A stretch of DNA of 64,000 nucleotides from a virus (taxonomy: Duplodnaviria; Caudoviricetes). The notes under the pieces were generated by a model that saw nothing but the letters and a program-made list of their open reading frames with translations, did no database searches and was not told where the DNA came from. The DNA lies in IMG/VR virus record IMGVR_UViG_3300037400_005125, positions 1 to 64,000 of that record; one strand, 5' to 3'. This document shows positions 31,942 to 53,728 of the stretch, piece by piece. The translations under genes were made by a program, and so were the position numbers. Numbering within the stretch: position 1 is the first letter of the stretch; each line of letters starts with the position of its first letter.

Positions 31942-32002
31942 AACAATTTGTTTTTATTATTAATAAATATCGCCAAATTTTTGAAAAGACATAAAAAAAA
32001 AA

Positions 32003-32027
32003 GGGAACGATATACTTGTTGACACAA
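32003..32027 (+). repeat. left 25-bp terminal inverted repeat
   Basis: GGGAACGATATACTTGTTGACACAA. Confidence 0.95.
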
Positions 32028-32149
32028 AATAACGTTCTTACATAAGTATACAATAAATGAGGAATTATTTCAATACAGTTCATCATTTTTTTATTTAACA
32101 TCAATATTTATTTAAAGAAATAACTTAATAAATAACAAACAAAACATAT

Positions 32150-33523
32150 ATGAAATACTTAAAAAAATTCAGTACTCACTCTGAGTATGAGACATACATT
32201 AACGGTAGTGGAGCAATTCTACCAAATGTATCAATCTGTACAACTGAAGGTGATGTGCATTATAATCCAACCGTTGCTGTAACAGGTGTATCACTTAATA
32301 AAAGTGAGTTAAGCCTTAATAAAGGTGATTCTGAAATCTTGATAGCCACTGTATTACCAAGTAATGCAAGTAATAAATCAGTAACTTGGTCATCAAGTGA
32401 TGATAGTGTATTCACTGTTAGTAATAATGGTCTTGTAACTGCTGTAGGCGATAGTGGAAATGCTAATGTAATAGCAACAACAGTTGATGGCGGATTCACA
32501 GCACAATGTGTTGCAAACATCACACATGACTATTCACAAGACTACTTCACAATGGTGGTAACAAGTGGTGGTGATATTAAATTCAGTGGCTCAACAACAG
32601 CAAATACGCTGTCTTATTCAAAGGATAACGGTGCTAATTGGTCATCTGTAACAATTGCAGATACAATATCTGTTGTTGAAGGTGATAAGGTTCTATGGAA
32701 AGGAACGCCAACACCACAACCATCTAAAGGTATTGGTAAGTTCATTGGTGGTACTGATGTTAGATATTCAGTAGAAGGTAATGCAATGTCATTACTGTTT
32801 GGTGATGACTTTAAAGACCAAATAAGTCTTAGTGGTAAGAATTATGCATTATATGGTTTATTCAGGGGCAACACCAATGTAACAAGTGCTGAAAACTTAT
32901 CATTACTTGCAACAACGTCGACAACTTCCTGTTATAGCTATATGTTCAGAAGTTGTACAAGTCTAACGACAGCACCTGAGTTACCTGCAACAATGTTAGC
33001 AAATGAGTGTTATAACGGTATGTTCTATGATTGTACAAATCTAACGACAGCACCTTCTGTGTTACCTGCTACAACGTTGGCAAATAACTGTTATACCCAA
33101 ATGTTTTGTGGTTGTACAAGTCTAAGGACAGCCCCTGAGTTACCAGCAACAACATTGGCAAATAACTGTTATAGCTTTATGTTCAATGGTTGTACAAGTC
33201 TAACGACAGCACCTGAGTTGCCTGCAACAATGTTAGCAAATGAGTGTTATCAAAATATGTTCCAAGATTGTACAAGTCTAACGACAGCACCTGAGTTACC
33301 CGCAACAACGTTGGTAATTAGCTGTTATAGCTTTATGTTCAGTGGTTGTACAAGTCTAAGTTCAATTAAGTGTCTTGCAACAAGCATTAGTGCACGTAAC
33401 TGTACATATGATTGGGTAAATGGTGTTGCAGCAAGTGGTACATTTACTAAGGCAGCAAGTATGAGAAGTTGGACAAAAGGTATTAGTGGTATTCCAACCA
33501 ATTGGACTGTGAAAAATGCATAG
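32150..33523 (+). CDS. Ig-like (Big_2) + BspA-type leucine-rich-repeat protein, putative adhesin or virion decoration
   Basis: VTGVSLNKSELSL...ATVLPSNASNKSVTWSSSD (Big_2); 23-aa repeats CTSLTTAPELPATTLAxxCYxxMF. Confidence 0.9.
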   Translation: MKYLKKFSTHSEYETYINGSGAILPNVSICTTEGDVHYNPTVAVTGVSLNKSELSLNKGDSEILIATVLPSNASNKSVTWSSSDDSVFTVSNNGLVTAVGDSGNANVIATTVDGGFTAQCVANITHDYSQDYFTMVVTSGGDIKFSGSTTANTLSYSKDNGANWSSVTIADTISVVEGDKVLWKGTPTPQPSKGIGKFIGGTDVRYSVEGNAMSLLFGDDFKDQISLSGKNYALYGLFRGNTNVTSAENLSLLATTSTTSCYSYMFRSCTSLTTAPELPATMLANECYNGMFYDCTNLTTAPSVLPATTLANNCYTQMFCGCTSLRTAPELPATTLANNCYSFMFNGCTSLTTAPELPATMLANECYQNMFQDCTSLTTAPELPATTLVISCYSFMFSGCTSLSSIKCLATSISARNCTYDWVNGVAASGTFTKAASMRSWTKGISGIPTNWTVKNA

Positions 33524-33540
33524 TAAAATATTATATAAGA

Positions 33541-33567
33541 GGGATAGTTCAAGTGGACTATCCTTTT
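33541..33567 (+). terminator. terminator of the LRR gene
   Basis: GGATAGTTC-aagt-GGACTATCC then TTTT. Confidence 0.7.
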
Positions 33568-33724
33568 ATTATGCCACTTTGTTATGTGCATACCAATGAT
33601 AGTATACATCACGCTTGAACATCATATATTCAATATCCACAACAGTAGATAGTGACAATGCATCATAAGTTGCTGAAAGTTTTGTCCTTTCAGCAACTTT
33701 GTATATTTATTCAAAAGGAACGAC

Positions 33725-33749
33725 TTGTGTCAACAAGTATATCGTTCCC
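33725..33749 (-). repeat. right 25-bp terminal inverted repeat
   Basis: TTGTGTCAACAAGTATATCGTTCCC, 25/25 match to the reverse complement of the left copy. Confidence 0.95.
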
Positions 33750-33779
33750 AAAAAAAAAGAGCAACCATTACAGTTGCTC
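33750..33779 (-). terminator. terminator of 33768-35165; its U-tract is the apparent insertion site of the cassette
   Basis: GAGCAAC-cattaca-GTTGCTC with A9 on the left (U9 on the minus strand). Confidence 0.7.
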
Positions 33780-35165
33780 CTCATCTTCATTAGGGTTAAT
33801 CAATATATGTTCTTCCTCTATTTGTTCATCAAGCGACGATTCTGGTATATTTTCAAGGTCTATAACTGTTTCTGGGTCATAACCTATTAGAACCACACCA
33901 GACTCCGAATGAAGGTCATCCCTTGTTATTTTAACGGTTATTTCATCGTCTTTCAAAAATTTTATTTCATTATCAAGACTCATTACCTCCCCATTAACTA
34001 TAAGGCTAAAATCGTGAACATTATCAGTCTCTACTGAATCAAGAACCATATCCTTGTCAATTGTAAATGAAAGCTCAAGTGTACAATCATCAAATCTCAT
34101 AAATACTTTCATTACTTTATACTTATATCTGTTCTCTGGGGGAACACAGCAATCATCGTTTGATTCCACTAGTTCAGCAATTTCTGGTGGAGGTGGTACT
34201 TTTTCACCAATTACTGGTACTTCACATAACTCTGTTTTGTCTACCATAGTACTAAGGTAATGCCCCTTATGCTTTTCTGGTTCAAACATTACATCTTCTT
34301 TTGAAACCCACCAGTCTGGTTTACCTGGGTGCATACCACCTTCAGGGGCTGTTATAAACTGAACCCTTTCGTCTGGTCTCCTATTCTTTCCTCTCCTATT
34401 TATTATACCAGTTGCATCAGAATCGTGAGAAGACATAATTAGTCTTGAAGGTATTCTCTCAACCTTGTAATCTTCTCTCCTTATTATATATCCCTTCAGC
34501 TTAATCTTAAATGTCTGAGAGTAATACTTACGGTCATCAATGGTATATTCTGACTGGTCTGATATATCCTCAAGAGTCAATGGCATAGGGTGGTCATTAG
34601 GCGAAACATACACATTAATTGCGCTGAATTCATAGTGCATAAGTTCATTCATTTCATTAAGCAACTCCATCTTATTAGTGATAATAGACACAGAATACAT
34701 GAAATTAACTGAGAATGGTTGTTTCATTGTGTACTTATCATATGCCTCTGTTCCATTCTCTTGTAGTACAGGAACATAAAACATTGCAAAATCCTTATGA
34801 CCTGGTATGTTGAAATAACTAGACTGGTTTTCTCCCTTCTGTGGATTATTCTCACGAGTAATGGTCTTGAAATTCATTATCATGTTACCATAATCATCAG
34901 TCTGACTCCAGGTTTGTGTATATTCGCTAAGTCTTTGCGTTGAATACAGCTTATATGTTGGAAGTCTAACACCGTCATACTCAAGGTTGAATTTCTTGTC
35001 AACCCAATTGTACATTTCCTGGTCTATGTCAGAGTACTCAATAGGTTTTGGAAATGGCGTTCCATTCTCCAATATGAGCTTTGACATGTTCCTCCTTCTT
35101 TCAACACCATATGCGTGGTGTCTTAGTCTGAGTTTATCCCTATATGGTTTTGGCTGTATTAACAT
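33768..35165 (-). CDS. putative neck/tail-completion structural protein
   Basis: Late-type motif, position next to the sheath; PKPIEYSDID...TITRE...QPFSVNFMYSVSI resembles tail-terminator folds (weak). Confidence 0.45.
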   Translation of the reverse strand: MLIQPKPYRDKLRLRHHAYGVERRRNMSKLILENGTPFPKPIEYSDIDQEMYNWVDKKFNLEYDGVRLPTYKLYSTQRLSEYTQTWSQTDDYGNMIMNFKTITRENNPQKGENQSSYFNIPGHKDFAMFYVPVLQENGTEAYDKYTMKQPFSVNFMYSVSIITNKMELLNEMNELMHYEFSAINVYVSPNDHPMPLTLEDISDQSEYTIDDRKYYSQTFKIKLKGYIIRREDYKVERIPSRLIMSSHDSDATGIINRRGKNRRPDERVQFITAPEGGMHPGKPDWWVSKEDVMFEPEKHKGHYLSTMVDKTELCEVPVIGEKVPPPPEIAELVESNDDCCVPPENRYKYKVMKVFMRFDDCTLELSFTIDKDMVLDSVETDNVHDFSLIVNGEVMSLDNEIKFLKDDEITVKITRDDLHSESGVVLIGYDPETVIDLENIPESSLDEQIEEEHILINPNEDEEQL

Positions 35166-35452: not shown

Positions 35453-35479
35453 AAAGGACTCAGCGTGAGTCCTTTTTTT
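35451..35479. terminator. bidirectional terminator
   Basis: AAAAAGGACTCA-gcg-TGAGTCCTTTTT. Confidence 0.85.
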
Positions 35480-36317
35480 ATGCGTTTTCCTTTTTCAGTA
35501 TTTTTATATCTTTAGCATTGAAAATAACGTAATTTTTAAATGTTTCCCCTGTATTAGTATTCTCACATTTAAGAAATAGCCCAGTGTACCCTATTCTGTA
35601 TAAGAACTCGCTGGTATCTTTTTCATTTCCTAAAAAAGACTTCAAAGTGCCATAAACACATCCACCATCATAACAATCGCCAATATATTTACACTCATAT
35701 TCCCAGAAATCATTCTCGTGCCCTTTATATGCTTCTCTACCATACTCGTTTTCTGTCATGTAGTACTTGAAAAACTTCTTTGCTATTGTCATTGCCTCAG
35801 ATTTTCTAATTTTATCGTAGTTAAGGTATTTTCCGTCAGGAACTTCTACCGTATATATGTTTTTACCTTGACAATATGCTCTTGCTGTTTCAACACTTGT
35901 GGTAAGATAAACCCCATATCCATGACTTTGCTGACCAAATCCAGTTGATAAATATGCCAAATCAAACTCATTAAAATTGTGTGGCGAACCATGAAATAGT
36001 TCAAGTTCATCAATTGCTTCACGTATAATTTTACTGAATTTACTTTCTGGAACATAAAACCTTGGATTCCTATCTGGCTCTATAAACTTATCCGCATTAT
36101 AATCTGGATTTGAAAGATAACACCTCTTAAAAGTATCAGGGTCTTGGGCTATTGCCGTCTTAATGTTCTCAGTATATCCCCTTAACCCACCAGCACGTTT
36201 AAAACCAAAACCCTTAGCCTTTGCAAATCTGTGTATTACAACAGGTGGTGGTGGCTTAGGTAAATTATATGCTTTTGCTATGTCTCTTGCAATTGTTTTT
36301 ACATCTAAAATCCTCAT
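35478..36317 (-). CDS. ADP-ribosyltransferase-like protein (ART-PolyVal type)
   Basis: LFHGSPHNFNEFD...GYGVYLTTSVETARAY...GYTG...YVIFNAKDIKI. Confidence 0.7.
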   Translation of the reverse strand: MRILDVKTIARDIAKAYNLPKPPPPVVIHRFAKAKGFGFKRAGGLRGYTENIKTAIAQDPDTFKRCYLSNPDYNADKFIEPDRNPRFYVPESKFSKIIREAIDELELFHGSPHNFNEFDLAYLSTGFGQQSHGYGVYLTTSVETARAYCQGKNIYTVEVPDGKYLNYDKIRKSEAMTIAKKFFKYYMTENEYGREAYKGHENDFWEYECKYIGDCYDGGCVYGTLKSFLGNEKDTSEFLYRIGYTGLFLKCENTNTGETFKNYVIFNAKDIKILKKENA

Positions 36318-51875: not shown

Positions 51876-52850
51876 ATGAGACACTGTAAGAACTATTGGA
51901 AAAATAAAAACAATGTATTTGAGGAGTCAAAAAAATATACTTCAAGGTCATCGTTTAACAAGCATTCAAGAAAGGCATATGATGAGGCAAGAAAAAATAA
52001 TTGGCTTGATGAAATGACATGGCTTATCAGTAAAAATGTGTTTGTTGATAAAGTAGATAATATTTACAGATATTATTTCAAAAATGAAAATGCTATATAC
52101 ATTGGTAGGACAATCTATCCAGAATTAAGGGATTATCAACATAGGACTACAGTTAACGATACTGTTTATAAATTTGCTAGTAAGAATTCCACTACCATAC
52201 CACAGATGGAAGTCATAGAAACAAACATAACAGTTCCGCAAGGTTCAAGAAAAGAAATATTTTGGGAACAGTATTATAGAGACAATGGGTATATAGTGTT
52301 AAACAAAAAAAAATGTGGTGGGGTAGGTTCTATATCAACTGGAAAATGGAGTAAATCAAAGTGCATAGAAGAATCAAAAAAATATAAAACTAGAAGTGAG
52401 TTCTCAACTGGAAATAGTAATGCATACCAAAAATCAATAAAAGAAGGTTGGATAAATGAAATGATTTGGTTAAATAATAATAGAAAATATCCTAAAGGAT
52501 TTTGGACAATAAAAGAAAACGTGTTGGAAGAAGCAAAAAAATATAACTCAAAAAAAGAATTTGAAAAGAAAAACATTAGTGCATTTTTAGCTGCATATAG
52601 ATATGGATTTATTAAAGATATGAATTGGCTTGTAAAGCAAAAACAACACAAGAAAAATCATTGGAACGAAACTGAACTTAAATCAGAGTCAAAAAAATAT
52701 TCAACTAGAACTGAATTTTCTATCAAAAACAGGGCAGCATACAATGCCGCTAAAAAACTTAGCATACTTGATGAATTATTTCCAAAACAAGAAAAAAAAA
52801 AGTTGTTGAGAGACACCCAAAAGGCTACTGGAAAAACAGGGAAAACATGA
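51876..52850 (+). CDS. GIY-YIG endonuclease with tandem KGxW..EEAKKY..EF repeats (N-terminal portion)
   Basis: IYRYYF...IYIGRT...R..QH...E...E..Y...LN; about five W-x6-EEAKKY repeats. Confidence 0.8.
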   Translation: MRHCKNYWKNKNNVFEESKKYTSRSSFNKHSRKAYDEARKNNWLDEMTWLISKNVFVDKVDNIYRYYFKNENAIYIGRTIYPELRDYQHRTTVNDTVYKFASKNSTTIPQMEVIETNITVPQGSRKEIFWEQYYRDNGYIVLNKKKCGGVGSISTGKWSKSKCIEESKKYKTRSEFSTGNSNAYQKSIKEGWINEMIWLNNNRKYPKGFWTIKENVLEEAKKYNSKKEFEKKNISAFLAAYRYGFIKDMNWLVKQKQHKKNHWNETELKSESKKYSTRTEFSIKNRAAYNAAKKLSILDELFPKQEKKKLLRDTQKATGKTGKT

Positions 52851-53131
52851 TGAATGAAGCTATGAAATATTCAACCAAAGAAGAATTCCAAAAAGGAAAT
52901 CTTTCTGCTTTTCTTGCAGCTCATAAATACGGCTACATAGATGAAATGTATTGGCTTGTTAAACAGAAACAACATAAAAAAGGATATTGGACTTACAAGC
53001 ACATTGAAGAGGAGGCGCTAAAGTACAATACCAAGACTGAATTCTTCAAAGGAAACCAGACAGCATACCGTGCTGCATTGAAAATGGGAGTAATTGATGA
53101 CTTCTTCGTTATGAATGACTATGTGCAATAA
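52847..53131 (+). CDS. C-terminal repeats of the same GIY-YIG protein, in the -1 frame
   Basis: The -1 frame is open from the A10 run (52792-52801): KVVERHPKGYWKNRENMMNEAMKY..., completing a repeat. Confidence 0.75.
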   Translation: MMNEAMKYSTKEEFQKGNLSAFLAAHKYGYIDEMYWLVKQKQHKKGYWTYKHIEEEALKYNTKTEFFKGNQTAYRAALKMGVIDDFFVMNDYVQ

Positions 53132-53163
53132 ATGAGCAACCGTGATTGGCTGCTCATTTTTTT
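53131..53163. terminator. terminator between convergent genes
   Basis: AATGAGCA...TGCTCATT followed by a T-run. Confidence 0.7.
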
Positions 53164-53212
53164 GTATATCTATACACTATTGATATTTAGAGTCAACAGG
53201 TATATAGTTCCC

Positions 53213-53728
53213 TTAAAAATTATATTTTCGTCTAAGTTCCATATATACTGCATCTGCAATTTTCATTCTCAGAGGTATTGACATAATCTGTTTGAATATC
53301 TGGGGGCATCTTGAAATAAATTCTTCTTTCCTCCATTTTAACTGCTGATTTTGCGTCCCTCCTGGGAACATCAAAAGTCGAGGATGAAAGCAAGAAAGAG
53401 CTTCTTCCGATAATTTTTCATCATTCATTACTGTATCAACAACGTTCTTGATGATTTCGTCGTTCCTGCCTTCCGATAATATCTTGTTTACAGATTCTTT
53501 CACAATTCTGTGAAGGTCACTCTCTGTTAGCCTAATGATGGTTTGTTCCTCAACTTTTTCTGGAAGTCCCTTATGTTTTGTCTCGGCAAAATCCTTTACA
53601 TCATCCATCGACATTCCTTTTGCAGCTTTCTTTATCTTGCTGCTTGCATTCTTCATTTCGCCCTTCTTGTATGCATCTACCATACCAAAGAACCTCTGTT
53701 GTTCTTTACTTTTACTTTTACTTGGCAT
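53213..53728 (-). CDS. DUF3008-like N-terminal domain fused to an internal LTESDLH motif and a small C-terminal domain
   Basis: SKSKEQQRFFGMV..YKKG...AKGMSMDDVKDFAETKHKGLPEKV then TIIRLTESDLHRIVKESVNKILSE. Confidence 0.7.
   Translation of the reverse strand: MPSKSKSKEQQRFFGMVDAYKKGEMKNASSKIKKAAKGMSMDDVKDFAETKHKGLPEKVEEQTIIRLTESDLHRIVKESVNKILSEGRNDEIIKNVVDTVMNDEKLSEEALSCFHPRLLMFPGGTQNQQLKWRKEEFISRCPQIFKQIMSIPLRMKIADAVYMELRRKYNF

Follow-up and report, generated by a model that had tools for sequence, protein, structure and literature searches.

Introduction

Insertion sequences (ISs) of the IS1595 family are characterized by an 8-bp target duplication and by a transposase with a zinc-finger N terminus and a DDE_Tnp_IS1595 domain (PMC8101967), and family members that carry passenger genes have been termed "transporter ISs" (tISs; Siguier, Gagnevin & Chandler 2009, cited in PMC3129680). 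Also cited there are the mobile insertion cassettes (MICs), exemplified by MIC231 of Bacillus cereus, which stems from IS231 (De Palmenaer et al. 2004, cited in PMC3129680). Phage genomes are reported to tolerate insertion sequences poorly (PMC3429520). Here, we describe an element at positions 32003-33749 of a 64,000-nt stretch of phage DNA ("the window," i.e., positions 1 to 64,000 of the virus record IMGVR_UViG_3300037400_005125), in which terminal inverted repeats enclose a gene for a 457-amino-acid (aa) protein with an immunoglobulin (Ig) domain and leucine-rich repeats (LRRs). The element is very probably a non-autonomous, deletion-derived member of the IS1595 family, of the passenger-carrying tIS kind; our literature search turned up no paper that connects IS1595 with Prevotella and phages in such a way.

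The full virus record (G000) is 89.7 kb long, with a CheckV completeness of 24%, and the complete phage genomes related to it are 409-413 kb in size (rumen jumbo phages of ∼410 kb). There is no close cultivated phage, the tail sheath being at most 31% identical to that of any deposited phage, and the evidence on mobility comes from assemblies (a viral collection, metagenome-assembled genomes [MAGs] and related phages).

The locus resembles tISs, as these are summarized in the citing paper, in that its sibling copies carry one transposase with a zinc ribbon and a DDE_Tnp_IS1595 domain, repeats that start with GG, 8-bp duplications and an internal gene not concerned with transposition; the siblings display all three IS1595 family features. 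It differs in that the window copy is without a transposase, in that the replicon is a ∼410-kb uncultivated rumen phage and in that the passengers open with one conserved promoter and 40-aa leader module. With MICs, to the extent that they are summarized in the same paper, it shares the ends of a known IS enclosing a passenger gene with no transposase, a target duplication and an expected mobility in trans, whereas it departs from MIC231 in belonging to IS1595 rather than IS4/IS231 and in having arisen by a simple internal deletion of a tIS. By its features, then, the window element is a MIC-type derivative of an IS1595 tIS, for which mobilization in trans is predicted. The same family includes 265-306-bp non-coding derivatives with the same ends in Prevotella MAGs, reminiscent of MITEs (miniature transposable elements with inverted repeats; non-coding and under ∼300-500 bp), a class to which the 1747-bp window element with its intact 457-aa open reading frame (ORF) does not belong.

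Phage morons are independently transcribed extra genes located between core genes. Like them, the window element is an autonomous promoter-gene-terminator unit, which has a structural-region gene on either side and is missing in close relatives. Its route of arrival, however, can be read from the transposon ends, the target duplication and what is left of the transposase, as is seldom possible for morons.

Results

Ends and Internal Anatomy of the Element

The original prediction, made from the DNA letters alone, held that perfect 25-bp inverted repeats flanked by A-runs enclose the Ig/LRR gene and form either a cassette mobilized in trans or an invertible segment. The features that we find at the locus are as follows (coordinates in the window, strand, description).

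31993-32002, no strand: A10 run outside the left end; one copy of the putative 8-bp target-site duplication
32003-32027, plus: left terminal inverted repeat (passenger-side "A" end), beginning GGG; identical 25-mer at the ends of the autonomous copies in phage G001 and Prevotellaceae MAG RUG195
32028-32053, plus: subterminal A-end sequence kept among copies (alignment, nhmmer)
32055-32093, plus: inward-facing terminator-like hairpin and T-run of the A end; z -2.1, weak here, with one stem mismatch in the window copy
32103-32111, plus: AATATTTAT, promoter-like motif of the passenger, kept in sibling copies
32150-33523, plus: passenger gene, 457 aa; 40-aa leader, Big_2 Ig domain and 26-aa BspA-type LRR repeats
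33541-33563, plus: terminator hairpin of the passenger, followed by a T-run to ∼33572; -17 kcal/mol, z -4.0, region kept in the G004 copy
33572-33664, minus: IS1595 transposase remnant, last 31 codons (residues 310-340); tblastn 68% identity, E 4e-9
33665-33666, no strand: internal deletion junction; ∼1086 bp (transposase codons 1-309 and the upstream region) gone relative to the RUG195 copy
33667-33699, minus: hairpin of the transposase-side "B" end; -19 kcal/mol, z -4.7
33700-33724, minus: subterminal B-end sequence kept among copies (alignment, nhmmer)
33725-33749, minus: right terminal inverted repeat (B end), exact match to the reverse complement of the left repeat
33750-33758, no strand: A9 run beyond the right end, serving both as the duplication's other copy and as U-tract for the neighboring gene's terminator
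33756-33782, minus: intrinsic terminator of the 465-aa phage gene 33768-35165; its T-tract is the insertion target, and the same hairpin with an uninterrupted site is present in the related contig L046

The two 25-nt repeats are exact reverse complements over 25/25 positions, as had been claimed, and with up to 3 mismatches the 25-mer occurs only in these two copies in the window and not once in 100 shuffles. The stated length proved to be a minimum: likeness of the two ends extends to ∼50 nt, with a variable spacer, beyond which they differ from each other. Each end can fold on itself (z -2.9 and -3.3), and the terminal repeats are identical over 25/25 positions to those of transposase-bearing copies (G001 and RUG195). 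The flanking A10 and A9 runs lie in direct orientation, and the right-hand run is indeed the U-tract of the minus-strand terminator of gene 33768-35165, for which we compute a stem at 33782-33756 (-16 kcal/mol, z -5.0) that overlaps the stop codon of that gene.

The predicted expression unit is present (TATTTAT at 32105-32111, ORF at 32150-33523, terminator hairpin at 33541-33563), and the ORF is the single intact one in the 1747-bp element. That the segment holds no transposase or recombinase is correct insofar as intact genes are concerned; the last 31 codons of a transposase survive at 33572-33664. The DNA of this remnant is 85% identical to positions 844-948 of the RUG195 element, and the two blastn blocks around the junction (cassette 1559-1663 matching RUG195 844-948, and cassette 1665-1747 matching RUG195 2035-2118) place the beginning of the ∼1086-bp deletion right at the inner edge of the transposase-side hairpin. 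As only the last 31 transposase codons are left in the window copy while sibling copies have the intact gene, the element is a derivative rather than an autonomous member of IS1595.

Both ends have an ordered layout: on the passenger side, the inverted repeat is followed by an inward hairpin and T-run, the ATATTTAT motif and the passenger gene, and on the transposase side by an inward hairpin and T7, ∼150 nt and the transposase start. The T7 after the B-end hairpin is found in autonomous copies and was lost at the deletion junction in the window copy. In the alignment of sibling copies, pairing in the A-end stem is maintained by compensatory changes and two different stem sequences occupy the position of the B-end hairpin; this variation in stem sequence with maintained pairing argues that structure is what is conserved at both ends. 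Most simply, the two inward hairpins would insulate the element against transcription from outside. The ATATTTAT motif stands 20-50 nt upstream, in the sense orientation, of 15 of 74 genes of the window's phage, as against 7 in the antisense orientation.

Two candidate signals were discarded in the course of the analysis. An ATGAGG after the A end, considered as the passenger's start codon, turned out in the alignment to be one arm of the conserved hairpin. A TTGACA in the repeat, considered as the sigma-70 -35 box of inward promoters, has no -10 partner in a second cassette of the same genome (see below), and a generic promoter scan gave no more sites than shuffles.

Sibling Copies Carry an IS1595-Family Transposase

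Further copies of the 25-mer are found both in related phages and in bacterial MAGs, and the cognate transposase belongs to the IS1595 family. Related phages contain pairs of the identical 25-mer that enclose an LRR gene and a convergent gene for a 340-aa transposase, which matches Zn_ribbon_IS1595 and the full model of DDE_Tnp_IS1595 in Pfam (1e-42 to 1e-44) and scores 200 bits against the NCBIfam model NF033547 for IS1595-family transposases (cut-off 75). Autonomous copies with these ends are present once each in phages G001, G002 and G005 and also in the Prevotellaceae MAG RUG195. In phage G004, the pair of ends surrounds an LRR gene only, with no transposase remnant and a junction unlike that in the window, indicating that the transposase was lost independently.

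Among bacteria, the 25-mer is found in MAGs of Prevotella, Prevotellaceae and Bacteroidales from the rumen and gut. The RUG195 copy is 2118 bp long with perfect ends and lies among Bacteroidales-type genes, where it interrupts a DUF5715 gene (L037 4109-4729; L069 2155-2373 and 4332-4943); its transposase shares 92% identity with that of the phages. Seven contigs, each set of reads coming from a different sample source, show the same interrupted DUF5715 locus. Identity between phage and bacterial transposases is 92-97%, and all belong to one 90%-identity cluster with 195 members, mostly on short contigs; none of the 40 members inspected bears a name. Among deposited phage records, only six have any relative of the transposase, at no more than 40% identity. 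The miniature derivatives with the same ends in Prevotella MAGs measure 306 bp (L034 504-809) and 265 bp (L038 3411-3675).

At least five phage assemblies, independent of one another, and several MAGs produced by different studies show the paired ends with the same internal layout, which effectively excludes the idea that a chimeric join at one end created the repeat as an assembly artefact.

Target Duplications and Empty Sites Point to Insertion by Transposition

The copies in G001 and RUG195 are flanked by exact, non-homopolymeric 8-bp direct repeats (TTTATTTT and AATATTTT, respectively), and the 265-bp miniature copy (L038) has a flanking duplication with 7/8 matches. The G004 copy can be compared directly with an empty counterpart, because the window's phage is empty at that site: A9 and A9 flank the filled site, against 10 nt in the empty one, giving a duplication of 8 bp. 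The proposal that the A-runs around the window element are a target-site duplication is compatible with these 8-bp duplications (G001, RUG195, G004). The eight end pairs in this set are in keeping with A/T-rich insertion targets.

The window site itself has an exact empty allele in the closest relative, L046, where the 110-aa and 279-aa proteins on either side share 97-98.6% identity with their window counterparts: in this allele, the same terminator hairpin (with one substitution) is followed by T6 and then by the sequence that follows the cassette in the window. Five further relatives (L043, L044, L045, L047 and L048) are empty as well, the two flanking genes lying 80-86 bp apart with no insertion. 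In the viral collection, the exact 21-mer of the flanking terminator hairpin yields no second assembly of the site, and its 4 matches in the metagenome collection are all chance matches in unrelated DNA.

The same data bear on the alternative offered by the original prediction, namely that the segment is flipped between its 25-nt repeats by a site-specific recombinase. Bacteroidota widely use short-repeat invertons, and as in the invertons and shufflons of Bacteroidales, a segment of a Bacteroidota-associated genome is enclosed by short inverted repeats; in addition, the gene is flanked by perfect repeats, and the orientation of the cassette relative to the neighboring terminator differs between the window and G004 sites. 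These opposite orientations, however, belong to different insertion sites rather than to one; the element has a promoter-like motif and a terminator of its own and is terminator-bounded, so that flipping it would change nothing obvious; and the repeats are DDE transposon ends with 8-bp duplications and empty sites. The incomplete 89.7-kb record has no match to serine (PF00239, resolvase/invertase) or tyrosine (PF00589, integrase) recombinases. With no invertase in the record, a self-contained unit and transposition-type duplications, we regard an invertible switch as extremely unlikely.

What had been proposed as a cassette derived from an IS and carrying a passenger is thus borne out by siblings with the same ends, an IS1595 transposase, 8-bp duplications and empty sites. 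As far as comparison of the copies goes, they demonstrate descent from an autonomous IS1595-type element and insertion by transposition into the T-run of the terminator. The ancestor comprised, in order, a 25-nt inverted repeat, an inward terminator hairpin, a promoter, a leader-tagged LRR passenger gene and a convergent transposase gene (zinc ribbon and DDE), followed by another inward terminator hairpin and the closing inverted repeat. One copy transposed into the T-run of the 465-aa gene's intrinsic terminator, beside the tail-sheath module, with duplication of 8 bp of the run, and because of this duplication both the upstream terminator and the downstream promoter were left intact. An internal deletion of ∼1.1 kb, before or after landing, removed the transposase except for its last 31 codons, the product being a presumably insulated, antisense-oriented expression unit for the 457-aa Ig and BspA-type LRR protein.

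A Second Cassette and a Solo End in the Same Phage

The 89.7-kb record holds five ends of this family in total. Outside the window, a second transposase-less cassette of 902 bp (G000 74735-75636; L004 1501-2402) has ends with 2-3 mismatches to those of the window element and 1 mismatch between each other, is flanked by T8 and T9 beside a terminator and carries an unrelated 239-aa gene with no Pfam or PHROG match. Within the window, a solo passenger-side end with 4 mismatches and an inward hairpin is found at 53188-53212 on the minus strand, and no partner end was found for it.

Some further observations concern these loci. The solo end, considered together with 53114-53187, lies directly against the stop codon of a DUF3008-like gene (171 aa), and its interior side holds a plus-strand 324-aa ORF (51876-52850) with a weak GIY-YIG match (E 0.01). 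The 306-bp miniature copy in L034 adjoins an RNase Y gene and contains a 25-27-aa fragment resembling both the cargo of the second cassette and the window gene 53213-53728.

A Shared Leader Module Opens the Passengers

The 457-aa passenger contains a Big_2 domain (residues 43-121) and BspA-type LRR_5 repeats (residues 289-411), encoded in part by 78-nt DNA repeats at 32903-33370, and is predicted to be a surface or virion-associated binding protein. The passengers open with a leader of ∼40 aa (MKYLKKFSTHSEYE.YINGSGAILPNVS...) that is 93-95% identical among the window, G001 and G004 copies, while the bodies behind it differ (Ig and LRR, LRR only, or a fibro-slime-like domain). The leader, together with promoter-like DNA upstream, is also found at the front of several resident genes of the jumbo phages (LRR, Ig and fibro-slime types), among them LRR genes without inverted repeats: besides the window site (32150-32284), there are two further ones in the record (G000 83363-83491 and 88482-88598), and the promoter and leader module occurs at up to six places in the complete relative G001. 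Because resident LRR genes lacking inverted repeats share the module, passenger bodies are probably exchanged by recombination behind the common leader. A 474-aa full-length homologue of the window passenger (37% identity; L025 6802-8226) lies ∼400 bp outside the autonomous IS copy in G005. A match to the leader in a 1644-aa protein of one relative is weak (33% identity, E 2e-4).

The presence of promoter and leader on resident genes without inverted repeats, together with the folding of each end and its terminator-like hairpins, would also fit a duplicated regulatory module (i.e., a terminator/promoter hairpin) that drives cassette exchange by homologous recombination, in the style of the T4-type promoter-stem-loops. 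Such a module would have to be repeated at many gene boundaries, yet only the five ends occur in 89.7 kb, and it does not account for what remains of the transposase, for 8-bp duplications elsewhere whose sequences are unrelated, for the split DUF5715 gene or for the chromosomal copies. A duplicated regulatory hairpin is, on these grounds, very unlikely as the origin of the insertion.

Genomic Neighborhood

The cassette is opposite in strand to a run of minus-strand genes in which it is inserted (465-aa gene, cassette, 110-aa gene, 1177-aa tail sheath). At the corresponding locus in L046 (2981-3589), an extra sense-strand gene for a 202-aa protein lies between the promoter region and the 110-aa gene; its absence from the window marks this junction as a hot spot of gene gain and loss. 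The 279-aa neighbor (35478-36317, minus strand) matches ART-PolyVal (ADP-ribosyltransferase) and DUF3990 weakly, with scores under the cut-off.

Is the Cassette Still Mobile?

Since both ends are intact, a cognate transposase from another copy could still act on the cassette and move it, and the donor could reside in the missing three quarters of the phage genome or in a Prevotella host chromosome. That it has already moved in its transposase-less form is a possibility that we put forward tentatively and hold to be somewhat doubtful.

Several observations weigh against a mobile, transposition-derived cassette. The 18-mer spanning the deletion junction has 7 matches in the viral collection, all unrelated and none with inverted repeats, so that the junction is nowhere else in that collection, and it is equally possible that the transposase was lost after insertion. 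No transposase gene is present in the 89.7-kb record (∼24% of the genome), and the complete relative G003 has one fossil end and an LRR gene with no transposase at all. As to the insertion itself, the duplication in the window is a homopolymer, which does not alone fix its length, and an 8-bp duplication predicts a pre-insertion run of 11 T, as compared with 6 T in the closest empty site (L046). Finally, the flanks of the G005 copy (L025 8623-11377) match over 5 nt only, which may reflect rearrangement between copies, and those of the 306-bp L034 copy do not match.

One alternative explanation departs from ours only in denying mobilization in trans: an autonomous IS1595 copy landed, lost its transposase on the spot and has not moved since, nor will it, so that the cassette is now a fixed, moron-like fossil and a resident gene. 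The transposase remnant shows that an autonomous copy suffered a deletion, no other instance of the junction occurs in the searched collections, the record is devoid of a transposase and the different deletion by which the transposase was lost in G004 makes in-place loss seem recurrent. Against this, both 25-nt ends are perfect and the subterminal 50-80 nt are kept, as a mobilizable element needs; the non-coding miniature derivatives at separate sites in Prevotella MAGs can only have spread in trans; and cognate transposases are present in related phages and host genomes. We judge the chances of the fossil scenario to be about even.

Discussion

In the history that we favor, an IS1595-family tIS delivered the 457-aa gene, and the cassette may still be movable in trans. 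A further-reaching scenario is that this IS1595 lineage is a shuttle specialized for leader-tagged surface-binding genes, with the promoter and the 40-aa anchor as a portable module. We consider it rather unlikely, but if it were true, new binding domains would be loaded behind the leader by recombination, and transposition would carry them from one phage locus or one phage to another, as well as between the chromosomes of phage and Prevotella, providing a transposon-based route for diversifying phage adhesion or host range.

One IS lineage recurs in a clade of ∼410-kb rumen phages in the form of autonomous copies, transposase-less cassettes and fossils, and, being shared with Prevotellaceae chromosomes, it ties an uncultivated jumbo phage in a concrete way to the host it probably infects. 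The window element illustrates how a phage's structural region can gain an additional gene with the neighboring terminator and promoter unbroken, and it suggests that transposons spread adhesin-like genes among phages.

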